In this document: piece after piece, positions 40,183 through 63,398 of the stretch
Numbering within the stretch: position 1 is the first letter of the stretch
Layout of the letters: each line of letters begins with the position of its first letter
Origin: Bryobacteraceae bacterium
Lineage (GTDB): Bacteria > Acidobacteriota > Terriglobia > Bryobacterales > Bryobacteraceae
DNA length: 64,000 nt
Reading direction: 5' to 3'
NCBI GenBank assembly: GCA_051003795.1
Contig: JBPCKZ010000152.1
Location: 7,520 to 71,519 of the forward strand
Translations under genes and position numbers: made by a program
Notes under the pieces: model-generated
Seen by the model: the letters and a program-made list of their open reading frames with translations, nothing else
Told to the model about the DNA's origin: nothing
Databases searched by the model: none

Positions 40183-40572
40183 TTGCTTCGCATCGCCTAC
40201 AGCATAGAATTCCTGATCGCGATCATCGCCATCTTCACATTTTGGAGCGAGGTCGGCGGCCAAGGGCATCTCGATCTGATGGCGTGGTATTGGAAGCTTG
40301 GTTTTTCGCTTGCCGCCGCCGCGGTTTGCCTCAAACTCACCGCCGCGACGCTCGAGAAGCAGAGCGTCTGGTCGAAATCCGCGCTCCGCTGGCTGCTGGC
40401 GCTTGTGCTCTTAGCCGCCGGAGCCGGCGCCGTGACTTATTTTTATCATCTCAACGAACCGGCGGATACCGACGATAGCGAGGCAATCTATTCGTCGAGT
40501 TGGCGCGCCATCGAGTCGCAAGCGACCTCGATACATGGCGATTTTGTGGTAGTGGTTCATTTTGAAATTTGA
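40183..40572 (+). CDS. hypothetical membrane protein whose last ~8 codons come from an inserted element
   Basis: Three or four hydrophobic helices. TTG start. The 8-bp duplication (40540-40547) and left terminal repeat (40548-40564) lie inside its 3' end. Confidence 0.4.
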   Translation: MLRIAYSIEFLIAIIAIFTFWSEVGGQGHLDLMAWYWKLGFSLAAAAVCLKLTAATLEKQSVWSKSALRWLLALVLLAAGAGAVTYFYHLNEPADTDDSEAIYSSSWRAIESQATSIHGDFVVVVHFEI

Positions 40573-40604
40573 CACTTAAGTACCGAATTGGTAACTAAAT
40601 ACAA

Positions 40605-40698
40605 CGCCGTTAGTGAGGAATAATCCACCGCAGATCCCCGCCGGGCCACTTCGGGCGGGCGTGTCATCTGGACTGAATCGGCGAACAGAAGCCGACTT
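40605..40698 (+). repeat. 94-nt subterminal block (L-type end), copy 1
   Basis: About 91% identical by eye to the reverse complement of 49709-49801 (cgccgttag...ccccgccgg.ccac.tcggg...catctggactgaatcggcgaacagaagccgactt). Confidence 0.85.
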
Positions 40699-41029
40699 AT
40701 CGTTCCTAATCCGACCGACGTGGTCGAACGCTGCTTCTGGATTGTGACTGTCATAATCACGGAATGCCGGTTACACGACCAACTGCACCGCGTGATGCTC
40801 AGCAAACCCACACACCTATAGCACGCGGACCTCTCCCTCGGCGTTGTTGTTGGTGCGGAACGATGAAAATCGGAGAAGCAGTACTCTGTTGTATCTATAC
40901 TGATATTTGATCCCTGAGGCAAAGATTTTAGAGGTGGAAGCGTCTCGACACGAAATGCAAATCATCGATATCGACAAAGAGCGCAGGAAATGTTAGCTTT
41001 CGCTGCTGTCCGGAGGATCGCTACTGCGG

Positions 41030-41596
41030 TCAACGCCTGAGGACCTTAAGCGGCAGACTGAGTCCCTTCGCCTTGCAGGCAATCTCCCCTTCCTTAACCG
41101 CGAAATCGTACGGCTTGCCTGCAGCGATGGCATCGTAGAAGCCCTCTGCAAACTGAATTGCGGCGACGTCATCGATAGCCGCTTCCATCCCAATAGTCAA
41201 ATCCGCCAGTGGTTCGGTGCGGGCTGCCAGTGAACTGCAAGCGTTGAGAATCACGCATTTTATGGATGGGTGGTGGGCGACGAGCGAGGATATGGCGTCG
41301 ATCGGTGAAACGGCGATTTTGCCGGACGCGTCTTCAAACAGCAGTGAATCGAAGTCGCCGTGCCCGGAGAAATGAAGTATTTCGTAACCGTCATCCAGCA
41401 GGGCGTGCCGAACATCATCAACGGTTGTGGCGTGTCGCACTTCAAGAGAGACGCAGTCTCGCGCCTTCCCGCGCTGAAGGGCGTGGCGGATAGCGCGATC
41501 CTCTTGTGTAAGCCGCAAGTTGCCGGTTCCTTCAGGGTTCGCGAAAACGACGATGACTCGTATTTTAGGAATCGCCGCGCGGGCGACATTCTCTCT
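41030..41596 (-). CDS. CHAT/caspase-like protease domain (C-terminal part of a frameshifted gene)
   Basis: ILHFSGHG (His) and VILNACSS (Cys) dyad. The frame is open upstream of the annotated TTG back to TGA 41597-41599 and reads PKIRVIVVFANPEGTGNLRLTQEDRAIRHAL, the usual CHAT N-terminal strand, with no start codon of its own. Confidence 0.7.
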   Translation of the reverse strand, partial: RENVARAAIPKIRVIVVFANPEGTGNLRLTQEDRAIRHALQRGKARDCVSLEVRHATTVDDVRHALLDDGYEILHFSGHGDFDSLLFEDASGKIAVSPIDAISSLVAHHPSIKCVILNACSSLAARTEPLADLTIGMEAAIDDVAAIQFAEGFYDAIAAGKPYDFAVKEGEIACKAKGLSLPLKVLRR

Positions 41597-42729
41597 TCAA
41601 GGCTTTGGCCGGACGTGCCCGCCTCGATTTTCAAATCTTCTGGAAGCCGCTCGACGATTCTGCGGACGGATAACACCAGTTCTTCCAATTGTCCCTGCGG
41701 GCGCTTACTTCCCGCGTAAGTCGCCCCGGCGCCAATCTGAATGGCGGCGCTGCGAAGGCTCTGGGCGGTCGTAGCGTCGGTGCGACCTACTACGTCGGCG
41801 ATTCGGAGACATAGCAGGATGAGGGCTTTATTCGTGTCGCCACGGTCAAACGGAAAACGATCAATGAGACCGGAATATCCACCAAGTCTCTCGAGGACTT
41901 GGGAAGATATTTCCAGCGACTCCCGGCTGAAGGTTTCGTGGTCCATCCGAAAGAGTTGCTCTACCCCCTCGATGTCGAGTTCCTTCGCCATGCGGCCGAC
42001 CGTCGCCTCAGGAACCAACGGGCATACGCAAAGTACATGCCCACACTGTACGCACAAGCCGGGATAACGCTTAATCAGTTCGTCCTCAAGCGAAAAAGGC
42101 GTGTCGGTTTGCTGCTGCGCCATAAGTTCATGCTCGTTGGCAAGGCCCATCAGATACGAGAAAACATCGGACGCCTCACCGGCAAAGTATTTGGGATATC
42201 GATCAAAGACGCGGACTGCTTCGGCCAGCTCGCCAAGTTCTTCGAATAATCCTGTGACGCTGCGCCCGGAGCGTGCGTCGTCAATCGAACGCGGGTAGAT
42301 ATCGGAAAACATTCGCTGCCACCCGTTCAGTGATTTGGGCCTCAGCAAAACGTTCGATTCCTTCGCCCGTTTGAGTGCCGCGTGATCGACCGTCTTGCTC
42401 GTCCCACGGGTGGTTTTGCATGGCAGGTCCTGATGGGGCTTCAGCCTGCAGTACGGACATACGTAGGGGTACTTCCGAAATACGAGTTCCTCAACGCTCG
42501 AAACGCGAAACTTGGCCATCAGGGGGAAAAACCATCCGAGGGCTTTGCAAAGAGCATCCAAAAAACTGAACCCTTCGCGTTTCTTATTCCGGGAGTGCAC
42601 GGTAAGCATTCCGCATACTTCTACGAAGTGCGTGAACGTTGCTGCCGCAGGCCGGTGAGCGTTCTGCTCACTGTACGTGTGGGCGATCATCTTATAAAAA
42701 TCGTCGAGCCTCAGTGGCGTGTCGCTCAT
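41589..42729 (-). CDS. tandem MazG-like nucleotide-pyrophosphohydrolase-type domains (N-terminal part of the frameshifted gene)
   Basis: LFEELGELAEAVR ... EASDVFSYLMGLANEH ... KRYPGLCVQCGHVLCVCP is a MazG-like core with a terminal Cys cluster. A degenerate first copy precedes it (FVEVCGML ... RKYPYVCPYCRLKPHQDLPC). Start at ATG 42729 (MSDTPLRL). The ORF tail beyond ~41590 is out of frame over the CHAT part. Confidence 0.65.
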
Positions 42730-42887
42730 GATGTGTCGCTCAATGATCGTTCGCTTGATGTATTGGACCACACGCCGGAATGACACCCACCCGGCCGACG
42801 GGGTCTAGACCCTCAGATTAGCGATCTGGTCGGGAGGTCTTTGACCTGACCGTGGGGGATCTCGCCGGGTTAGTAATGATAAACGCG

Positions 42888-43021
42888 CTTCCGTTCGCCT
42901 AACGGCCAGGATCGTCGGCAATCCGGAAGTGGGCCGCATTCCCGAATTAACACATAGGTCCTCCCTTGTCGCCCAGCGTTTACCGAACATCTCGCTCGAC
43001 GATTCAAACTGACCCACTACC
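42888..43021 (-). repeat. 134-nt terminal block (A-type end: TIR plus conserved leader), copy 1
   Basis: About 90% identical by eye to 47555-47688 in inverted orientation. Lies directly upstream of, and in the same direction as, the cargo gene. Confidence 0.9.
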
Positions 43022-43049
43022 GATTTTGTAGTCCTGAAACCTAAATGCA

Positions 43050-47452: not shown

Positions 47453-47483
47453 GTGTCCACACTCGTGTGGACACAAGTTTTTT
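47453..47483 (+). terminator. rho-independent terminator of the response-regulator gene
   Basis: gtgtccaca-ctcg-tgtggacac (9-bp stem, 4-nt loop) followed by aagtttttt, 34 nt after the stop codon. Confidence 0.75.
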
Positions 47484-47554: not shown

Positions 47555-47688
47555 GGTAGTGGTCAGTTTGAATCGCCAAGCGAGATGTTCGGCAAACGCT
47601 GCGCGACAAGGGATGATCCTATGTGCTAATTCCGGAATGCGGCCACTTCCGGATTGCTGACGAATCCTGGCCATTAGGCGAACGGAAG
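47555..47688 (+). repeat. 134-nt terminal block (A-type end), copy 2
   Basis: See 42888-43021. Contains a perfect hairpin TCCGGAA-tgcggccac-TTCCGGA (47631-47653). Confidence 0.9.
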
Positions 47689-47954
47689 GGCCGATGCCCC
47701 ACTTGTAGCGTAACTTCGTGTAACCCACGGACCGGCTCCAAACAATAACCGTTCTCGTCATCTTCGCTGGACGCGATAGTAGCCCATGCGGACACGCCCA
47801 GATCGAGTGGCTCTAATGTCTCGCTGAGATTATTTATGGTTTTCGAGAGTTCCCAGGCGGCAGAGTGCAGTTCAGGGGAAATAGACTTGAGTTCTTTGAA
47901 TGATGTGGCGATCCGCTCTGTCGGAGGAACCTGAGGGACCTTCGGTTTAGGCAT
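47619..47954 (-). CDS. hypothetical small protein (divergent from the HEPN gene)
   Basis: ATG 47954 is preceded by AGGAG at a good spacing. 111 codons. The 3' third runs into the conserved terminal block, so the true end is uncertain. Confidence 0.35.
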   Translation of the reverse strand: MPKPKVPQVPPTERIATSFKELKSISPELHSAAWELSKTINNLSETLEPLDLGVSAWATIASSEDDENGYCLEPVRGLHEVTLQVGHRPFRSPNGQDSSAIRKWPHSGIST

Positions 47955-48136
47955 AGGAGCCAGCTCCTTAGATAAATTGCGCCTTTAAAGGCGGTACTGC
48001 GCAAGGCAAGAGCCGCGGATCAAACCGCCGGTATAAATGCCGCTCCGACCTTTTGGCAACGGTGTAACACGTTCCGGCCCTGCGGGCGCGTTCGCTCGGG
48101 TATGCTCATTGCCATGTTCGCAGCGACCTTGCTACG

Positions 48137-48850
48137 GTGAAAGTCATGGTTCCGAGCGGCCCACCGCCCATGACCGAGGCGGAATACTGGCGCGATTACG
48201 ACATCATCCGCAATGACGTGAATGCGGCCATGGTCAGCTGCTACACACATCGCGCCATCAACGACATATCCGTGTCAGATCAGAAAATCTACCAGAGACT
48301 CAATCGGCATCCGGACTTCTGGCGGGTTACGTCATTCAGCCTACAGAACGGTCTGTTCATAGTGCTGGCGCGCATTTTGGATTCGGACCCCAAACTGCAT
48401 TCGATCTATCAGGTCTTGAACGCGACAACCGCGCATCCGGAGTTCTTCAATAAGGCTGCACTGCGAGCACGAAAACTCAGCATTCCGGGCATCCCGCCGA
48501 ATCCACCGTGGCTGGACGAGTATGTTCAGAACGCCTGGGAACCAACCGTGCAGGACCTGCGCGCACTGAAGAAGGCCCTCGCTCCGCACAAGACGAAGTT
48601 CGACGACATCTACAAGCCGGTCCGCAACCAGATCGCCCATATCATTTTCAAAGACAAGCAGTCCATCTCGTCCCTTTACGGCAGAACGCTAAGAACAGAC
48701 ATTGATGAGATCCTCCGTTTTCTTCATAGTCTTGTGCGCGCGATCTGGGAGATGGCCCACAATGCCGCGCAACCGGATCTCAGGGGCGACAATTACGGAC
48801 GCCGATCGGGTGGCGGAAATCACGAAGGAGACACACGAGCTACTCCTTGA
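48137..48850 (+). CDS. AbiU2-like HEPN-domain protein (abortive-infection type)
   Basis: RNQIAH (R-x4-H HEPN motif) within YKPVRNQIAHIIF. Helical N-terminal region with LFIVLARILDSDPKLHSIY, as in Abi-type HEPN families. The 3' end may be frameshifted (see findings). Confidence 0.5.
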   Translation: MKVMVPSGPPPMTEAEYWRDYDIIRNDVNAAMVSCYTHRAINDISVSDQKIYQRLNRHPDFWRVTSFSLQNGLFIVLARILDSDPKLHSIYQVLNATTAHPEFFNKAALRARKLSIPGIPPNPPWLDEYVQNAWEPTVQDLRALKKALAPHKTKFDDIYKPVRNQIAHIIFKDKQSISSLYGRTLRTDIDEILRFLHSLVRAIWEMAHNAAQPDLRGDNYGRRSGGGNHEGDTRATP

Positions 48851-49021
48851 ACTTCCTACGCGCTCTTCGCGTAAAGGCGTGCGATCATAGCAGAGACTTT
48901 TGAAGCTTCAATGTTGCGTTGCTTCGAAATTCCGCTGAAGCGTGGTGACGAAGTGCTCCCCCGCAGCGATGCGGCATCATGACTAGGCAGGGAGATCATG
49001 ACCCTGCTGGAGGCAAACGCC

Positions 49022-49400
49022 ATGCCCGTCGTCTACCGTGTCGGCGGCGGGATACCCCTGATGATTAAACTGCCATATGCCGACGACAACTCTACTTGGC
49101 TCAGGGGCGATAATCCTTCAGAAACCCGACTGGAACAAGCAATATAAATGCTGGGAGACGCCGAACACTTAGTTTTTAGTGAAGTCGTCGGCGAATACTG
49201 AACCGGTTTGGCCGCGTCTACGTCATTCAGCCTTACTAAGTTCTGGAAAAATGCGCTCCGGCATGGAGTGCGAATGCTCCTGTATGGGGGAAAACCATGG
49301 TTCTTAGGTGACGGGAAAGTGGTATGTGATATCAGAAATCTGCGCATTGCAATGGCACAAGCGTGAGCTTTCCTGTCGCCTTTTTAAAAGCCTCTTCCCC
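49022..49400 (+). pseudogene. decayed Cys-rich gene (one frameshift, two in-frame TAG codons)
   Basis: MPVVYRVGGGIPLMIKLPYADDNSTWLRGDNPS continues only after a +1 shift as KPDWNKQYKCWETPNT*...MECECSCMGENHGS*VTGKWYVISE... No intact ORF spans it. Confidence 0.35.
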
Positions 49401-49708
49401 TCGGAGTCAACCGGTACCCCATCCCAGTTCCGCCGAGGACATAAACCGCGAATTATATTCCGCGCGCCGACCGCGCCCCCGACACCTTTAAGAGACTCGC
49501 CCGCGACGGCAGCGCTTGCCAGTTTTCCTCCGGCCGTATCTCGCCAGCGCTTCCGCCTGACGGGCCATGAAGGTCAGGCGGGACCAGATTGGTCGGAACT
49601 ACGGGCCCGATGCAAAGCCCCACGCTGGTTTATACATTCCGATTACTCTGAGACACCTCCACCGCTTTTCCGCCCTCTGCGGTCAGCGCAAGGAAGATGA
49701 GTCCCCGG

Positions 49709-49801
49709 AAGTCGGCTTCTGTTCGCCGATTCAGTCCAGATGACGCGCCAACCCGATGTGGCCGGCGGGGATCTGCGGCGCATTATTCCTCTCTAACGGC
49801 G
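49709..49801 (-). repeat. 93-nt subterminal block (L-type end), copy 2
   Basis: Reverse complement matches 40605-40698 with about 8 differences. Confidence 0.85.
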
Positions 49802-54796: not shown

Positions 54797-56986
54797 ATGT
54801 CATTTGAAAACTACGATCAGGCACTTGATCGCGCGGCGGATCTCTGCGGAGTGGAGCCGCGATTTTGGGATATTTTTGGGCATCTCCATACGGCGTCGGT
54901 TCAGACCAAGCGGGCCATCGTCGAGGCGCTCGGCATGCCGGCCGCGACGAAAGAAGATCTCGAAAGCGCGATCGCCCAACGCGAGAAGGCGGAATTGACA
55001 CGCATTTTGCCGCCCTGCCTAGTGGTGGACCTAGGCGAGCTCCTACGGATTCCGGTGCAGTTGCCGGAGACTCACTCGAACGTTCTCGCGGCGTTCGAAA
55101 TCGCGCTCGAAGATGGTTCGCGCCTTCGCTTCGAAAAGATAATCGGCGCGCGCATGCAGGTCGAATTGGACGCCCGCTTGCCGCTCGGATACCATGAACT
55201 GTCCGTCAGTGTCGCCGGCTTGAATCCGGAGAGTATTTCGCTGATCGTTGCGCCGGAACGCGCATTTCTGCCGGAGTCTCTGGCGCATGGGAAGAAGGCC
55301 GCCGGCGTAGCCGTTTCGCTCTACGGCCTCCGCTCGGAATTGAACTGGGGCTGCGGCGACTTCCGCGATCTGCGCGATGCAATCGACTGGGTGGCGGAAA
55401 TCGGCGGCGATTTCGTGGCCCTCAATCCGCTGCATGCGATTCACAATCGCCGGCCCTACAACACCAGCCCGTATCTTCCCAACAGCGTTTTCTATCAAAA
55501 CTTGATTTATCTGGAGGTCCCGGCGATCGAGGAATTCGAACATTCCACCGAAGCCCGTAGAGTTTGGTTTTCGCCTGAAACGCAGGAAGAGGCGCGGCAA
55601 CTTCGCGAATCCGAATTCGTGGAATATGAGCGCGTGAATGCGCTAAAGTTGCGTTTTTTAAGATTGTTGTTCGCCGAGTTCCGCCGGGCCGGGCGGCCTC
55701 TTGAAAAACGGAACGATTTTGAAGATTACCGCCGGCGGGAGGGCGATTTGCTGTATCGATTCGCGACCTACTGCGCGTTGGATGAACATCTTCATGCCGC
55801 CGATCCGGATGTTTGGATCTGGCCCGATTGGCCCGCCGGTTATCAAGACCCGGATTCGCCGAAAACACGCGAATTTCAGCGGAAACACGCCGAGGCAATT
55901 CTGTTTCATCAGTACGTCCAATGGCAGATCGATATCCAGTTGAACGCGGCGCAGCAATACGCGCGCGCGAAGGGGCTTTCAATTGGTCTCTATCACGATC
56001 TGGCGTTGGCGACGGACCGCTGCGGTTCGGATCTTTGGGCGCATCGGCCCTTCTACGTGGCGGGTTGCCGCGTGGGCTCGCCGCCCGACGATTTTTCGCC
56101 GGCCGGTCAGGATTGGGCGTTCCCTCCACCCAACGCCGAGCGCCATCGCGCCACCGGATACCGGCTATTTAGGGAATCCATCCGCAAGTCCTGCCGGCAT
56201 GGCGGCGCTCTGCGCATCGATCACGTAATGCGGTTCTTCCGGCTCTACTGGATACCCGACGGATCGGACGCGACCGCCGGAGCTTACGTGCGCGACAGGT
56301 CGGAGGATCTGGTCCGAATCCTCGCTCTCGAGAGCTTTCGCAACCGCGTGGCGGTGGTTGGCGAGGATCTGGGCACCGTGGAACCGCACATCCGCGAAAC
56401 GCTCGCGCGCTTCGGCATATTGAGTTACCGCCTGTTCTATTTCGAGCGCGGGCCGCACGGCAGCTTCAAGCGTCCGGACGAATATCCGCATCAATCGCTT
56501 GTATCCTCGACCACCCACGACCTGCCCACGCTTGCCGGATTCTGGATTCACGAAGACATCGAAGCGCGCCGCCGGGCGGGTGTAGTGGACGATGCCGAAT
56601 ATCGCCGTCAAATTGCCAATCGTTTACAAGACAAGCAGAAAATGTTGGACGCGCTTTTCGATCGGCACTTACTCCCGAGTTACTTTCCGCGGACGGCGAT
56701 TCACGTCCCCGAGCTAACCGGCGAGTTACACAACGCGGTAATTGGATTTCTCGCTTCGACGCCTTCGATGTTGATGGTCGTTAATCAGGAGGATCTGACT
56801 AAGGAGACGCATCAGCAGAACCTGCCGGGAACGACTTCGCAATATCCCAACTGGAGCCGGAAGATGAGGTTTACGTTTGAGCAATTGAGGACGGAGCCGC
56901 TCGCGATGGGATCGATGCAGATGTTCCGGGACTGGATGCGGCGCACGGGGCGGGAATCGGAACGAATCGCGGCTAAGATGATCTAG
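54797..56986 (+). CDS. malQ: 4-alpha-glucanotransferase (amylomaltase, GH77)
   Basis: [54 protein letters not shown] blocks. Confidence 0.92.
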
Positions 56987-57222
56987 TGGCACACTCAGGG
57001 CGGTTCACCCGAATCACGATCAATCCGGCGGTCGCTACCGGAAAGGCGTGTATTCGCGACTTGCGTTTTCCCGTATCGCGATTATTGGGCCTGCTTGCCG
57101 CGGGGGAATCGCCGGAATCGATTCTGAAAGCGTATCCTTATTTGGAACTGGCGGACATTGAGGAAACGCTTCGCTACGCTGCGTTCCTGGCCGAGGATGA
57201 GACGGTGGAACTCGCTGGGTGA
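56986..57222 (+). CDS. DUF433-domain protein (antitoxin-like)
   Basis: ITINPAVATGKACIRDLRFPVSRLLGLLAAGESPESILKAYPYLELADIEETLRYAA is the typical DUF433 pattern. Confidence 0.8.
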   Translation: MAHSGRFTRITINPAVATGKACIRDLRFPVSRLLGLLAAGESPESILKAYPYLELADIEETLRYAAFLAEDETVELAG

Positions 57223-57439
57223 AGTTTCTCGTGGATGTGGCTCTGATTTTCCCCGGCTTCTGGCAGCACTGAATGGTGCGGGACCTGGACTCATTCTCCT
57301 CCGTGGTGGAAATTACAGTGAATTCGAAAGCATGAAGTGCGTACGCCGCGTGCTGGCGGCAATACCCGGCCAGGAACTGCGGAAATCCGTTGTAGTAGTT
57401 GACAGAGAAAAGATCAGACGGCGATGGCTTCCGATATAG
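57219..57439 (+). pseudogene. remnant of a DUF5615 (PIN-like, toxin-type) gene
   Basis: GTG 57219 (GTGA overlap with the DUF433 stop) gives VKFLVDVALIF...stop. A second frame continues PRLLAALNGAGPG...LILLRGGNYSE...VVVVDREKIRRRWLPI. The length is not a multiple of 3, and the middle acidic core is missing. Confidence 0.5.
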
Positions 57440-57999
57440 TGTGGGCGCTTAATGCATAATGGCTGATTTTAATTTCGTCGCACGGAACGCGAGACCGTTT
57501 TATTACCTACGCCTTCAGACAAGTTGTTCTCTTCGCGCTTCGGACGTTCGACAAAGTGCACCTGTGGATGAATTCGCGGTGTTCCGACACGTTTGGCCCA
57601 AAATGCGGTAGTGGGTCAGTTTGCGTGAGCCGCTTTCAGGATTGCCTGCCGCGCAAGTCGGCGGTTTGGGCGTTATACGTCCTTGTGAAGGGGATGCCAA
57701 CTCCACACTTGCCGACTTTCGGCGGTTTGAGGCGCACCTTGTGGCTACCTCGCAGGCAACCTCCCAGCGTCGGATTCAGGCTGATAACTTCCGGATCGCC
57801 GACCACCCAGACGGAACACTCGTCGCCCCTCGCGGCAAGCGGCCATCTCGATTCTCGAGACCGTGAACGCCGCGACCGTATGTTTCAAGACCTCCACGAC
57901 TTTGTCCGGGTCGCGCGCGGAACACCGCGCAGCCCACCGACGGTGGACTTCTGCGTTCCAAAAGGTGTGGCTTTCTTGAGATACTACGAATTCCGTCTT

Positions 58000-59517
58000 A
58001 TGAAGATGACCGCTGACAAACGCGCGATCGACAAAATCTTTCGTCGTCGGGATCGTTACGAGATTCCTGATTGGCAGCGACAGAAGGTATGGAACAAGAA
58101 GAAGAAGCAAGGCCTTATTGACTCCATCCTGCGGGGTTGGAAGCTTCCCAAGTTCTATTTCGTAAAAAGCTTGGACGAGAACTTTCTCGTGGAAGACGGC
58201 CAACAGCGGCTTACCGCGATTTTCGAGTTCTTCTCGGGGGACCTAGGCCTGAGCCAGGAATCTGTTGAGATCTTCGGTGGGACGTACTACAGCGAGTTGA
58301 AACGGAACGTAGCGGACGCATTCGATGACTTCGATATCGAGTTCGACGTGATCGAAGACGCGACGGATGAGGAACTCAAAGAGTTCTTCCAGCGACTCCA
58401 GGAAGGCATGCCCCTGACGGGGAGCGAGAAGCTCAACGCGGTACCCAGCAAGCTCCGCGATTTCTGCAAGGAAACTGCAGCGAAGCACCCGTTCTTCAAG
58501 GAGACCATTGCTGTGCCTGATACGCGGTACGCGCACTTCGATATTCTCGCGAAAGTGGTCACCGTCGAGATCGAGGGCCTCGACACGGGGTTACGGCTGG
58601 ATGACGTGAAAGCAGTTTTTGAGGCGAGCAAGAACTTCGCCACCACTTCGGCGGTGGCAAAGCGCATCAAGAACGCCTTGGATTTGCTCGCTACGGCGTT
58701 CAAGGGCAACGGCTCCATGCTGCGCACGAGAACGATAGTCCAATCGCTCATCACGCTCACCTGCAAGATCGTGAGCACCAAGAACTACGCGGGCCGTGAG
58801 GCCCTCCTTAAAGAGTTCTTTGAGAGCTTCATGACCGAGTTGGCCACACAGATTGACAAGGGGCAAGAAGCCACAGACAGCGACTACGTCCAATTTCAGA
58901 AATCCGTGAGCGCCAACGTCACCGGCGCTGCCCGGACGCGCCAAGAAATCCTCCTCCGGAAGCTTTTTACGATCGCCCCTGAACTCAGCGCGATCTTCGA
59001 CCCGAGCGTCATCGCCGAGAGTGGCGTGACGGGACGCATCACGGCAGTCTCAGATTCCATCAATCAGCTCATCGAGCAGATCAATAAAAGGCACGCTGCC
59101 GCGACCGGCGACGACTTACTCAAGGCGACAAACAAGACCGCCCCGGCACTGTTGCGCCTTCGCAAGACGGTCACGACCCGCGATGCTTACGGCACGTTCA
59201 TCGATGATCTCTACTTCCTCTTCCGGGAGGGACCTGGAACTCGCGTCGACCCGGCAACCTTGCCATCGTTCGTCCACATCAACGACCTACGGACGGACCT
59301 GCGCCACGACGTGGATCATGGGGACAAGGGCAAGATTCGCTCCAAGCGGAAAAAAGCGGGTACAACCTTCGCGCTCTATGCCGGCGAGGGAACGCCGGAC
59401 ACCATCGAACCAGCCAAGTACCCACTATTCCAAGCGAACATCCTCACCGCAACAGAAGGCGACCTTCGAGCGCTCCTCTCAAGGCCGACCCCAAACCAGG
59501 CCACGCCCACATCTTGA
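58000..59517 (+). CDS. DUF262 (ParB/Srx-like nuclease fold) protein with a C-terminal R-x4-H region
   Basis: IPDWQRQKVW, LIDSILRGWKLPKFYF, DGQQRLTAIFEFF and FFQRLQEGMPLTGSEKLNA are DUF262 blocks. Near the C-terminus, INDLRTDLRHDVDHG. Start at ATG 58000; the upstream ORF extension crosses the TIR and is junk. Confidence 0.8.
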   Translation: MKMTADKRAIDKIFRRRDRYEIPDWQRQKVWNKKKKQGLIDSILRGWKLPKFYFVKSLDENFLVEDGQQRLTAIFEFFSGDLGLSQESVEIFGGTYYSELKRNVADAFDDFDIEFDVIEDATDEELKEFFQRLQEGMPLTGSEKLNAVPSKLRDFCKETAAKHPFFKETIAVPDTRYAHFDILAKVVTVEIEGLDTGLRLDDVKAVFEASKNFATTSAVAKRIKNALDLLATAFKGNGSMLRTRTIVQSLITLTCKIVSTKNYAGREALLKEFFESFMTELATQIDKGQEATDSDYVQFQKSVSANVTGAARTRQEILLRKLFTIAPELSAIFDPSVIAESGVTGRITAVSDSINQLIEQINKRHAAATGDDLLKATNKTAPALLRLRKTVTTRDAYGTFIDDLYFLFREGPGTRVDPATLPSFVHINDLRTDLRHDVDHGDKGKIRSKRKKAGTTFALYAGEGTPDTIEPAKYPLFQANILTATEGDLRALLSRPTPNQATPTS

Positions 59518-59948
59518 TCACCCCACCAATCCTGAACCTTCAGTAGGTTCCCACGGGCGACCTGCGAAAGGACTGGCCGGGTCGGCGCTTCGATCTAGGA
59601 AAATCCTGCGTCGCAAGTACGAGGCCCACACCGCGCAGACGGACGCCGCCGAAGCGGAACTTTCTCGGGCGACTCGCTCTATGGCACGGATTGGCGCTAG
59701 CCCGCATTCGGAGCTTGCAAGCTTCAAGCCGTGGAGATTTATTTTTGTCGTCTCATCATTCTGGACGGTTAACGCGCTAACGTTCCTTCTGCCGTGGGCG
59801 CAATGTGTGGAGCAGCACGTCAGCGGAATGCCGATCCGGACAATATCGCAACGTGGCTTCTCAGAACGCCGAAACCGCTTGCCGTAAAATCATCGGTGCA
59901 GCGCTCAACGGAAGAACTCCCGACGATCTATGATCGACAAGGGCACGG

Positions 59949-61028
59949 ATGTCGTTGACCCAACGCGGGACAACGTCAAAGAACCGTTCAGCAAATGGAT
60001 CTGGAAAGCCGGCGCACATGCCAACACCCGAACAAATTATAAGGATAGACGCCAAAACGTTTCAGGACTCGTTGGGCGAACTGGCGGCAACGATGGTGCA
60101 GAAGGTATTCCGGGAGGGTCGTCAGCACATTGCGGGGCCACTGTATGTCGGCGAGGATATCGCCATGCTGATTAGGTACGGCGCGAGCGTATACAACCTG
60201 CTCAACTACTTGAACGCTGACGAACGCCGCAAGGAGGACTGCTACTGGTACGTCCGTTACGGCGTAACCGGAATGTCACTGGTGCGGTCGCTTATCGATT
60301 GCCTGTATAACGTCGTCGCGATTCTGGAGGACCCAGCTGAGAAGGCCCCGCAGTACCGGAAGAGCGGACTAAAGAAGACCTTGGACGACATCGACGAGGA
60401 TCTAAAACAGTACGCCGACCAGCAGGACCGGCAGGAATCCTTGCAGCAGCGGCGGAAGACGGTCGAGTTGCTGGTACAGGGGAGCGGCTTCACGATCGAC
60501 GAAGTGATGCAACTCAAGAAGCATGAGATGTGGCCCACCTTCGGCACGTACGTTAATACAATGCAGCCTGGCGGGGTACGGACGGAGATTCAGGAGTTTC
60601 TGAAGACGTTTGCGCACTTGGAATGGCGGCAATATTCCGCGCTCTCGCACGGCGCCTATGAAGCCTTCATTGGCACTCTGGGGATGGTGCCGGTTGGGGC
60701 GTACTACATGAACGACTTCCTCCCGCATGAAGTACGGGACAAGCTCGACGAGACGTACGACTTGTTTCTGTCGATGCATATCGGCCGCTCAGCAACAGTC
60801 TTGTTGTGCATGCTTACCGAAATTCAGGTTCATTGCGGTTTCGATGGCGCGAATATTAACGAGCGGATCTGTAAGGTTTGGGCTGCACTTTTGCCTGTAC
60901 CGGAGACCAAAGAGTTGTATGACGGGAGATATTCCGAGCTCATGAAGAATCGTGGAATCGAGAAGGCGAGGGAACTTACGGTACTCTCTATTTCCAGAGC
61001 GCCGAACCCGGTCGTTGAACCTAAGTAA
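59949..61028 (+). CDS. hypothetical protein, AbiV/DUF5677-like helical pattern (weak)
   Basis: MSLVRSLIDCLYNVVAILEDP and LEWRQYSALSHGAYEAF resemble the R..E...yl..dp and y..lS..H blocks of Abi-type HEPN-like families. The start could instead be ATG 60018. Confidence 0.45.
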   Translation: MSLTQRGTTSKNRSANGSGKPAHMPTPEQIIRIDAKTFQDSLGELAATMVQKVFREGRQHIAGPLYVGEDIAMLIRYGASVYNLLNYLNADERRKEDCYWYVRYGVTGMSLVRSLIDCLYNVVAILEDPAEKAPQYRKSGLKKTLDDIDEDLKQYADQQDRQESLQQRRKTVELLVQGSGFTIDEVMQLKKHEMWPTFGTYVNTMQPGGVRTEIQEFLKTFAHLEWRQYSALSHGAYEAFIGTLGMVPVGAYYMNDFLPHEVRDKLDETYDLFLSMHIGRSATVLLCMLTEIQVHCGFDGANINERICKVWAALLPVPETKELYDGRYSELMKNRGIEKARELTVLSISRAPNPVVEPK

Positions 61029-61275
61029 AGACTCCTGAGGCTAGCGGCCGACGCAACGATGCTTGAGTTTGTGGGCCAATCACGCGCGATCCGGAAGTTA
61101 AACGCTGGACAAATTCTGCTCAGATCCCGCCTGACGGCGTAGTGTTTACCGGGGCGGTGTCACTTGGCTCGTTTGTCGGCGAACCGTTGAAGTGCTCGTC
61201 TGCGCGGGCAAACTGACCCACTACCCAAAATGCAAACAACTCGATCCCGACGATAAGATCGGCTTGGCCTGAATC

Positions 61276-63315
61276 TTATTTCCACACAGGATTGATAAAA
61301 GCCCCGTTTCCCGCAACGTCCCAGATTGCCAGCCGCGCCCATTTCCAGCCCTTCGCGTCGAGTTCCCAATCGAACGAGCCCTTCCCAAATTCCCGCGTGG
61401 TGTCAAGCGAAAAAATCTTGTGGAACGTTTGCGTCCCGTCGCCCCAGACCACTTCCGCCATTCGCAACGGAAACGTGTAACTCACATCCGCGTGCGCCAT
61501 CAGTTTGTCTCCGGCCGGTCTTATGGAAGCTGCCGGCAGCGTGATCTCGCCGGTCGTGATGAAGTAGTCCCCTTTCGCCACCGTATCGAGAAGCTGTCCG
61601 TAGTTATCGTAAGTCGGCAGAGCCGGAAGCCGCACATAGTTCACATTCATGTGCCCGTATAACTCGTGCGTCGAATCGAGCTGAAACACGTCCACCTCAC
61701 CTATCATCCGCTTCTTCAGCCCTAAGTTGTTCATGTCGTCGACGGTTTTAAATGCGCGCTCGCCCAGCCGGGGAGACGAAAGGTCGGACGGCATCGCTTT
61801 CCAGCCCGATCCGAGGTAACGCGGATCGTGGAAATAAAAAGTGTCCATGATCTTGTCGGGATAACCCGTCGAGCCTTTCGTGCGCGGATGGGTTTGATAA
61901 ACGTAGCCGTTTTCGGCGCGCACCATGTCCCACACCTCCTTCGCATCGCTTACGCGATAGACGGTTCCATATTTCGGAACGGTGCTCCGAAATGGCTGAT
62001 CGGGTTTGCGGTCCATAAACCAATAGACCGGCTTGGGGAACACCAGCGCCCAATGGCCGCCGAGGATCGCATTGGCTTCTTCGGAAGGCATCAGCAGGAA
62101 ATCCGCGTTCGATTGCGCCCGGCACGCTTTAAAGAAATCGCGGAGTTCTTGGAGGCGAACTTCCCCCAAATCGCGCGGGTGGCCGTCGCCGTGGAAATCC
62201 ATGATCATCGCCGAATCCAGGCCAATCGCTTTCATTGCGGCCTTAAACGGCGGGGGCCAGTCGAAGCCATTGGCTATGGCTTGCATCGTGTATGCCAGAT
62301 GCCAGTGCGGCGCGAACGTCTTGTATCCCGCGAGCGCCGGAAACTTGTCGCCATGCGTGTAACGCAGGACGCTATCGAGCGCGGCGCGCTGGTCTCCGTC
62401 GCCCACCGAGATGAACATGCGCATCTGCTGCTCGGTTCCGGGCGGCGCGTTCATCCAAGGATAGTAAGGCGAGTAATCGTCGGGATATTGGCGAATGCCG
62501 AGCGACACGTTGCCGCGCCAGGCCGTGTACCAAACGTAGCCCATGTTCGTGGTGTAATCGCGCGCCATCATGTACTGGTGGGGAGCGGGGAACACCGCGA
62601 CACTGCCGGCGCCCGATTTCGCCGCCAAAACGCGGTATCGGACGGACAGCGAGCGCCGCTCCGAACCGTAGGCAGGCGCCATGGTTTGGAACTCGCCCTT
62701 CGTATCGAAATAGCCGATGTGCGATTCCATATTTCCGCCGGGCCGTTCATCCGCCGGCTCCGCCATTCGCAGCCCCGCATCGTAGAAGTAAGCTGTGTCG
62801 GGTTCTTGGGTCGACATCACGGCTTGCTGCTCGATTAAGCGGCTCCCCGGATAGAAAATGTAGCGGATGCTCCCCGAGAAGATTCCGCAGCGCATGCCGT
62901 CGAACGAAATCTCGATGCGGTCGCCGATCGATTTCGCGCGCGCGCCCTTTGGATGAAATTCACCCAGGAAGCTTCGCGTTCCTTCGGGATGGCTCGGCGG
63001 AAAATCGAAAAACGCGTCGAAGCCGCCGCGCCGCTTGCCTGTTTCGCAGCGATAGAACGGCTGGGCGCGTTCGATGACGCGCTTGCCTTCGATCGAGATC
63101 GCCGTAATCAAAGGTTTCGCCGAGTCGAGCGAGAACTCGGCGGACCAGTTGCGCGCCGACGCGTCTTTCCAGTGAACGGTAGCCGCCGCCGCGCTCGAAT
63201 CCACTGTCGCGGGGCCAGGCTGGACGGCGGACCCGTCGAACGTTATTGCGGCCGCGAATAAAGTCGAACAACTCGCCGCAAGCAGGACCGGATTTTTCAA
63301 AACGAATCGTGGCAT
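61276..63315 (-). CDS. hypothetical secreted protein
   Basis: Long ORF with coding-like composition. Start placed at ATG 63315 (MPRFVLKNPVLLAASCSTLFAAA signal). Family not recognised. Confidence 0.7.
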   Translation of the reverse strand: MPRFVLKNPVLLAASCSTLFAAAITFDGSAVQPGPATVDSSAAAATVHWKDASARNWSAEFSLDSAKPLITAISIEGKRVIERAQPFYRCETGKRRGGFDAFFDFPPSHPEGTRSFLGEFHPKGARAKSIGDRIEISFDGMRCGIFSGSIRYIFYPGSRLIEQQAVMSTQEPDTAYFYDAGLRMAEPADERPGGNMESHIGYFDTKGEFQTMAPAYGSERRSLSVRYRVLAAKSGAGSVAVFPAPHQYMMARDYTTNMGYVWYTAWRGNVSLGIRQYPDDYSPYYPWMNAPPGTEQQMRMFISVGDGDQRAALDSVLRYTHGDKFPALAGYKTFAPHWHLAYTMQAIANGFDWPPPFKAAMKAIGLDSAMIMDFHGDGHPRDLGEVRLQELRDFFKACRAQSNADFLLMPSEEANAILGGHWALVFPKPVYWFMDRKPDQPFRSTVPKYGTVYRVSDAKEVWDMVRAENGYVYQTHPRTKGSTGYPDKIMDTFYFHDPRYLGSGWKAMPSDLSSPRLGERAFKTVDDMNNLGLKKRMIGEVDVFQLDSTHELYGHMNVNYVRLPALPTYDNYGQLLDTVAKGDYFITTGEITLPAASIRPAGDKLMAHADVSYTFPLRMAEVVWGDGTQTFHKIFSLDTTREFGKGSFDWELDAKGWKWARLAIWDVAGNGAFINPVWK

Positions 63316-63398
63316 CCCGCTATCGTATACGAACCATGCGCGCATGGCAGGCCCGCGCCACAAAGCGCGGCTGAAGGTTTACATTAAGAGTCACGCAA

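Follow-up and report, generated by a model that had tools for sequence, protein, structure and literature searches.

A transposase-less cassette with IS1-type ends and defence-like cargo in a Bryobacteraceae genome

Ends, target duplication and content of copy 3

The stretch analysed here (the window) comprises 64 kb of a contig from a Bryobacteraceae bacterium (Acidobacteriota) and holds three insertions with related ends, the third of which, copy 3, is the subject of this study. Copy 3 is an insert of 3619 bp that carries two cargo genes between 18-bp terminal inverted repeats (TIRs; left repeat GGTAGTGGGTCAGTTTGC), and the octamer CAAAATGC lies directly outside both ends as a target-site duplication (TSD). 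An earlier reading of the letters alone (the sequence-only reading) had described the repeats as perfect and the duplication as exact. Our reading of positions 57400-61500 verified the coordinates, the reverse complementarity, the duplication, the insert length and the pre-insertion sequence, gtttggccCAAAATGCaaacaactcg, that is obtained by removing the insert and one 8-mer. The insert had also been called AT-richer than its flanks; the direction of this statement is right and the difference is mild (GC 0.567 inside copy 3 vs 0.59 in the flanks).

The earlier description of two convincing genes without a recombinase holds as well. Neither gene encodes a transposase domain, and a tblastn search of the whole window with the transposases of related elements, described below, found nothing. 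The ends are bare 18-bp repeats rather than complete insertion sequence (IS) copies, and copy 3 is thus not a composite transposon. When up to three mismatches are allowed, the terminal 17-mer GGTAGTGGGTCAGTTTG occurs 4 times in the window vs 0.03 occurrences expected; two of these are the ends of copy 3 and the other two are the ends of copy 1.

Both junctions of copy 3 are reproduced by an independent assembly, since a JGI metagenome contig (L125; 3300009400) matches positions 56007-61674 of the window with one mismatch, at 61651, outside the element. An assembly correction that removes one end, which the sequence-only reading had considered, is therefore not seen. The interior is also reproduced at 100% in the Logan assemblies SRR24198227 and SRR33880236.

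Table 1. Positions of copy 3, its neighbours and the sister copies in the window
Feature	Position	Strand	Remarks
Sister copy 1	40548-43021	.	2474 bp; ends GGTAGTGGTTCATTTTG and GGTAGTGGGTCAGTTTG
Sister copy 2	47555-49801	inverted relative to copy 1	HEPN AbiU2-like cargo gene at 48137-48850
Copy 3, left TSD	57599-57606	.	CAAAATGC; identical to 61226-61233, flush with element end
Copy 3, left TIR	57607-57624	+	GGTAGTGGGTCAGTTTGC; IS1-type end
Cargo gene 1	57880-59517	+	545 aa; ParB/DUF262 (GmrSD_N), NsnA-like; start per JGI and Logan gene callers
Putative 68-aa ORF	59681-59887	+	between the cargo genes; from automatic gene callers (L124 1935-2141, L125 3675-3881)
Cargo gene 2	59949-61028	+	359 aa from 59949; 336 aa from 60018 per NCBI and JGI
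Copy 3, right TIR	61208-61225	-	exact reverse complement of 57607-57624
Copy 3, right TSD	61226-61233	.	CAAAATGC; flush with element end
Terminator-like hairpin of the 695-aa gene	61242-61261	-	consensus scan only
Neighbouring convergent gene	61276-63363	-	695 aa

Relatives of the ends and their transposase

We scanned one genome per GTDB species (596 Gb) for exact matches to the 17-mer GGTAGTGGGTCAGTTTG and found it at at least 120 loci in other genomes. By our estimate about 70 matches are expected by chance in 596 Gb, so the loci with a single end are not all real. Most of the loci listed are from Acidobacteriota (Terriglobia, Bryobacteraceae, Pyrinomonadaceae and others), and the remainder come from Planctomycetota, Actinomycetota, Alphaproteobacteria, Gemmatimonadota, Chloroflexota, Verrucomicrobiota and others, with at least 10 phyla represented.

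Among the matches listed, 55 loci have an inverted partner within 7 kb. Flush direct repeats of exactly 8 bp flank 25 of the 55 pairs, repeats of 7 bp flank three and a repeat of 9 bp flanks one, whereas random re-pairing of the flanks yields 0.7 pairs with an 8-bp repeat. These counts bear out the proposal of the sequence-only reading that the family transposes with an 8-bp staggered cut of the target. The paired elements range from 32 bp to 4588 bp and include elements of 68-250 bp that resemble MITEs (miniature transposable elements with inverted repeats). In an alignment of 171 ends the boundary is sharp and falls exactly at the first G; conserved positions run to about position 20 (GGTAGTGGGTCAGTTTGAAtt) and stop there, and the target has a weak CAAnnTTG bias. 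Since family-wide conservation is confined to the outer 17-20 bp, these probably suffice in cis.

The sequence-only reading had proposed a search for an autonomous element with these ends, and such elements exist. An all-against-all comparison of the open reading frames in the larger elements revealed a recurrent protein of about 280 aa in seven of them (L021, L026, L036, L043, L056, L064 and L097), with frameshifted or partial versions in three more (L069, L105 and L049). The members that encode it are 2.6-4.6 kb long and have ends identical to the 17-mer of copy 3; the first 17 nt of copy 3 are identical, for example, to the ends of the transposase-encoding elements L021, L036, L069, L122 and L131. 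A second recurrent, small 'protein' in the autonomous elements was rejected as an antisense reading frame of the transposase gene in GC-rich DNA.

The ~280-aa protein matches the Pfam model DDE_Tnp_IS1 at 35.7 bits (gathering threshold 24.1). Cultured Mesorhizobium loti, Acidiphilium multivorum and Hoeflea have homologues with 56-61% identity on their plasmids, annotated by PGAP as 'IS1 family transposase', and at least 8000 relatives occur in metagenomes, many carrying the same label from JGI. In three further cases the gene lies in an element bounded by these ends: one of 3370 bp with perfect 17-mer ends and the TSD CGCTGGTG on the M. loti plasmid CP050295, one of 2634 bp with the TSD AAGCCGAG on the A. 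multivorum plasmid, and one of 3099 bp with perfect ends and the TSD TGAGTTTC in two Bryobacteraceae metagenome-assembled genomes (MAGs; L131).

Aligned with InsB of E. coli IS1A (MG1655), the transposases show invariant residues D69 (in DE.W), D142 (in TDG) and E206, which form a D-D-E triad. The motif ER.NL..R...R...FSK at E206 is common to the family and InsB, and the similarity is limited overall (E = 3e-6 over 40 aa). The family protein is encoded by one uninterrupted reading frame of about 275-300 aa with an N-terminal helix-turn-helix (HTH). The ends agree with this assignment. IS1 ends in ISfinder have the consensus GGnnnTG, and the IS1A inverted repeats (GGTAATGACTCC... and GGTGATGCTGCC...) have GGTA.TG..TC in common with the ends of the copy 3 family; both ends of copy 3 begin with GGTAGTG, and 8 of their first 11 nt match the IS1A repeat GGTAATGACTC. 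Classical IS1 elements mostly produce target duplications of 8-9 bp, as the title of Iida et al. 1985, cited in PMC12903888, also indicates; the duplication is exactly 8 bp in copies 3 and 1, and 8 bp is the mode of the family among the matches listed. IS1595, IS6 and other families that duplicate 8 bp were considered and dropped after the evidence from Pfam, PGAP and the alignment for IS1.

Several unusual arrangements were seen among the relatives. At L093 657-688, two abutting ends (GGTAGTGGGTCAGTTTGAACTGACCCACTACC) with the perfect 8-bp duplication CATCCGGG make up an element of 32 bp, which suggests that ends of about 16 bp alone suffice for transposition. Ends placed head to head, right then left, occur at L103 1919-1960, L105 5955-5996 and L047 1837-1877. 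The ends are 8 bp apart in L103 (TCATAAGG) and L105 (AATCAGTG); in L047 an ambiguous first base of the second end makes the spacer either 7 or 8 bp long. Such ends may belong to adjacent elements that used one common target, or may be junctions of inverted repeats as in dimer or circle intermediates. Around the 2.9-kb element of L105, one 8-bp flank (CACTGATT) is the reverse complement of the other (AATCAGTG), the arrangement that an intramolecular inversion would leave.

Origin and movement of copy 3

The ends and duplication of copy 3 belong to the IS1 lineage and the window holds no transposase gene, and thus copy 3 reads as a non-autonomous mobile insertion cassette (MIC). It has the anatomy of one: IS-type ends, a target duplication, no transposase, and passengers unrelated to transposition. 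We are therefore fairly confident that copy 3 is a non-autonomous derivative of the IS1 family that was inserted by a DDE transposase with an 8-bp stagger supplied in trans.

In the most likely course of the insertion, an IS1-family transposase encoded at another place in the cell would bind the two 18-bp ends of copy 3 and join their 3' ends to target phosphates 8 bp apart, at an intergenic spot of this Bryobacteraceae (Acidobacteriota) genome where a convergent gene has just ended. Repair of the gaps would then leave CAAAATGC on both sides. The cognate enzyme would be the IS1-family transposase of ~280 aa, the product of a single ORF, for which the autonomous relatives have a gene inside ends identical to these, and it presumably acted in trans.

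Members without a transposase do move. A transposase-less element of about 1 kb is present in the MAGs of two species (L112 1967-2983 and L015 6473-7533) with 99% identity between the two copies. The similarity stops at the element ends, and the copies occupy different sites with different perfect duplications, GCTATCTG and GGTGCGCC; the cargo is a 260-aa protein without a Pfam match. This pair, which records recent movement, together with the MITE-sized copies that have perfect duplications, establishes the mobility of transposase-less members. In E. coli, IS1 transposase provided in trans moves a cat gene flanked by IRL and IRR alone (miniIS1), and all 66 of 66 events were replicative, with the donor kept (PMC12903888). 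This, the one experimental precedent found, favours 'copy' over 'cut', and the movement of copy 3 was probably replicative by analogy; the window itself does not decide between the two. We infer that copy 3 was itself mobile as a cassette and did not lose a transposase in place, that it can still move, and that its source genome holds a helper transposase.

Several observations weigh against this interpretation. The best NCBIfam match of the ~280-aa transposase is IS1 at 52 bits, below the equivalog cutoff of 100, and the protein is encoded without the insA/insB frameshift of classical IS1. Its single uninterrupted ORF places the autonomous relatives in a single-ORF branch rather than among the classical IS1 elements; long single-ORF subgroups of IS1 exist. 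Copy 3 has only the ~18-bp ends in common with copies 1 and 2, so that its descent from a particular autonomous element is untraceable. The tblastn search revealed no helper transposase in the window, which covers 64 kb of a 76-kb contig, and when one from the sample of copy 3 was sought through the Bryobacteraceae homologue, that homologue proved to come from other assemblies and samples. The empty site, proposed earlier as a check, did not turn up: its 26-mer gave 0 matches in the JGI metagenome contigs. A query for a second location of copy 3, made of the left end and adjoining interior, likewise gave 0 matches there. Both negatives are weak, since the collection scanned does not return L125 either, although this JGI contig includes the second-location query.

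The most serious alternative is that copy 3 arrived as an autonomous element and lost its transposase by deletion in place, in which case it was never mobile as a cassette and what remains is an immobile relic. Autonomous relatives in the same size range (2.6-4.6 kb) also carry passengers, and decayed transposase genes occur in L069, L105 and L049. The tblastn search, however, found no transposase remnant in the window, the ends and the duplication of copy 3 are both perfect, both sister copies in the window are likewise without a transposase gene, and transposase-less members from MITE size up to the 1-kb cargo element have clearly moved. We consider this alternative unlikely.

Much less probable still is that another IS family with 8-bp duplications recognises the ends, the link to the IS1-like gene being incidental. 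IS1595, IS6, ISL3, IS256 and IS66 all make 8-bp duplications, and the ~280-aa protein has sub-threshold matches to IS6/IS240 models. Against this, more than 10 independent elements in different phyla carry this protein between these ends, IS1 is the sole model that it passes at a curated threshold, and other transposition-related genes appear once each among the matches listed (Mutator in L064, IS5 in L097 and TnpB in L079). Finally, an origin of the inverted repeat and duplication by chance or assembly artefact is refuted for practical purposes by the excess of end matches in the window (4 observed vs 0.03 expected), the 8-bp repeats flush with the ends in both copies 3 and 1, the two junctions recovered in the independent JGI assembly, and related ends elsewhere that number in the hundreds.

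Cargo, genomic neighbourhood and comparison with known systems

With copy 3 read as an IS1-family cassette, its passengers can be considered in turn. The product of cargo gene 1, for which an alternative ATG lies at 58000, has an N-terminal GmrSD_N domain (Pfam, 2.9e-18) and matches the PADLOC profile of NsnA at 1.1e-31 over most of the profile. Pfam revealed no DUF1524 nuclease domain in it, and no sequence relative was found among PDB entries. The gene has no NsnB ABC ATPase or NsnC effector adjacent to it; in the absence of these defining partner genes and domains it is not a complete Menshen system or a GmrSD type IV restriction system. The putative 68-aa ORF that follows has no Pfam match.

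Cargo gene 2 is a member of a family that is widespread and linked to mobile elements (258 homologues detected; more than 250 clusters), with about 40 invariant residues, including D, E, H, R and C. Its match to DUF5677 (0.002) is sub-threshold in Pfam, and searches of NCBIfam and PADLOC yielded no match and no ATPase or nuclease domain. The AlphaFold model is confident (pLDDT 89.7) and all-helical, and its comparison with PDB folds gave no match with E < 0.1. Homologues with 71-86% identity occupy other mobile contexts, where they adjoin integrases, helicases, primases or resolvases, and none of them has a DUF262 neighbour or enclosing IS1-type ends. Cargo genes 1 and 2 were considered as a conserved pair; the DUF262-less neighbourhoods of the gene 2 homologues ruled this out, and the two genes do not form a conserved module. 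The uncharacterised family of gene 2 deserves study. Taken together, the cargo of copy 3 most likely consists of accessory defence or conflict genes, one for a DNA-sensor-like ParB/DUF262 protein and the other for a protein that is linked to mobile elements and uncharacterised. It forms no recognised complete defence system.

The T-rich tail of the terminator-like hairpin of the 695-aa gene runs into the duplicated target, which puts the insertion of copy 3 immediately beyond the 3' end of that convergent gene. No plausible ORF was found across the reconstructed empty site, and an Rfam scan of the window at gathering thresholds found no RNA family. Directly upstream of copy 3 lies a gene for a small DUF433 protein (57158-57439; JGI gene call on L125).

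The sister copies carry cargo of their own. Copy 1 has the exact flush 8-bp duplication GATTTTGT at 40540-40547 and 43022-43029 and contains a CHAT-domain gene (41030-42786, minus strand) that is frameshifted, its two parts being overlapping ORFs (41260-42786 and 41030-41518); the Logan assembly L001 has the identical split. Copy 2 is a decayed or rearranged copy: its left end has lost 1 nt, the terminal ~57 bp are missing from the other end, and it shows no target duplication. At both ends, copies 1 and 2 have about 140-150 bp of subterminal sequence in common (89-93% identity), with unrelated cargo, which points to exchange of cargo within one chassis. Between them, at 43.0-47.5 kb, lie rpsA and the genes of a histidine kinase and a sigma-54 regulator; with the two copies oppositely oriented, these housekeeping genes might be inverted or moved as a composite. 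The Logan contig L001 breaks at 40669, exactly inside the repeats common to copies 1 and 2, and at 47454, before copy 2. The three cassettes and their surroundings could be a small island of accessory or defence genes.

A survey of about 20 cargo proteins, suggestive rather than statistical, points to a leaning towards defence or conflict among the passengers of the family. In the window, the NsnA-like DUF262 protein of copy 3 is accompanied by the frameshifted CHAT gene of copy 1 and the HEPN AbiU2 protein of copy 2. Cargo elsewhere includes matches to SoFic (4.6e-55) and PD-Lambda-2_B (7e-46), Fic and STAND NTPase proteins, ClpP-like SDH proteases (twice), methyltransferases, a weak match to Mrr_N, and TnpB. 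The TnpB gene is the sole cargo of a 1256-bp element (L079 2604-3859) with IS1-type ends and the perfect duplication GCGTGCGG. Its product combines OrfB_IS605 with Cas12f1-like TNB domains, so that here the gene of an RNA-guided nuclease rides an IS1-type cassette.

Proteins that resemble the proteasome beta subunit and other Ntn-hydrolases were observed as passengers in four autonomous elements: L036 (324 aa), L131 (240 aa), L064 (225 aa) and L026 (298 aa). The L036 protein scores 22.3 bits, just below the Pfam Proteasome threshold, and the likeness of the other three was judged by eye; BLAST comparisons among the four gave no mutual matches. An Ntn-hydrolase-like passenger could be a recurrent accessory gene of the lineage.

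The lineage habitually carries passengers, and several of these match validated anti-phage proteins. We put forward, tentatively and as a possibility with the odds against it, that this IS1 lineage is a general shuttle of immune genes in soil bacteria that keeps nothing but a nearly invariant end of ~17-20 bp and freely exchanges an interior of defence and conflict genes. Were this the case, small defence islands, of which the three copies seen here within 21 kb would be one, would arise from repeated insertion of cassettes, and IS-derived cassettes would be a route of defence-gene dissemination comparable to integron cassettes. Copy 3 reveals no new mechanism of transposition. As an IS1-family cassette without a transposase it is of textbook clarity, in a phylum, the Acidobacteriota, whose mobile DNA is poorly described, and the comparison across its family gives a probable minimal cis-acting end that is conserved to the nucleotide in at least 10 phyla. 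Annotators can use the 17-mer together with the 8-bp duplication to delimit cassettes and candidate defence genes in soil MAGs.

The components of this picture have counterparts in known systems. Like IS1, copy 3 has ends of the form GGTA.TG..TC and an 8-bp duplication, and the transposase of its autonomous relatives has a D-D-E triad. Unlike IS1, copy 3 lacks a transposase, and the enzyme of its relatives is one ORF of ~280 aa with an HTH rather than insA and insB' joined by a -1 frameshift. The relatives also differ from IS1 (768 bp) in their length of 2.6-4.6 kb and in their passenger genes.

MICs are defined by IS-type ends, passenger genes, the lack of a transposase and presumed mobilisation in trans by the cognate IS (PMC3129680). 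Like MIC231 of the Bacillus cereus group, copy 3 combines IS ends, passengers and a target duplication with the lack of a transposase. MIC231 derives from IS231, of the IS4 family, and has different ends and a different duplication length. The parent of copy 3 is instead of the IS1 family, its host is an acidobacterium, and its cargo is defence-like. The autonomous relatives resemble the transporter ISs (tIS), that is, ISs with passenger genes, of which the IS1595 family gave the first described cases (Siguier, Gagnevin & Chandler 2009, cited in PMC3129680); they too have a single transposase and passengers between short inverted repeats and make 8-bp duplications. They differ from the IS1595 tIS in that their transposase passes the IS1 Pfam model, with no reported match to an IS1595 model, and copy 3 differs from both in having no transposase.

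DUF262 proteins act as DNA sensors in Menshen (NsnABC) and in GmrSD/SspE-type systems (PMC12065111). Cargo gene 1 of copy 3 resembles these proteins in its ParB/DUF262 domain and its match to the NsnA profile. Copy 3 differs from Menshen and GmrSD in lacking NsnB, NsnC and DUF1524, and the gene beside cargo gene 1 is unrelated and not a conserved partner. IS1-family elements, ISs with passengers, MICs and the mobilisation of an IS1 mini-element in trans are all established already. A search of the literature, which did not cover ISfinder, found no description of this IS1 lineage. What sets the lineage apart is its single-ORF IS1 transposase, combined with an end that is almost invariable from phylum to phylum, with MITEs and MICs in abundance and, in the Acidobacteriota, with cargo of a defence-like kind.

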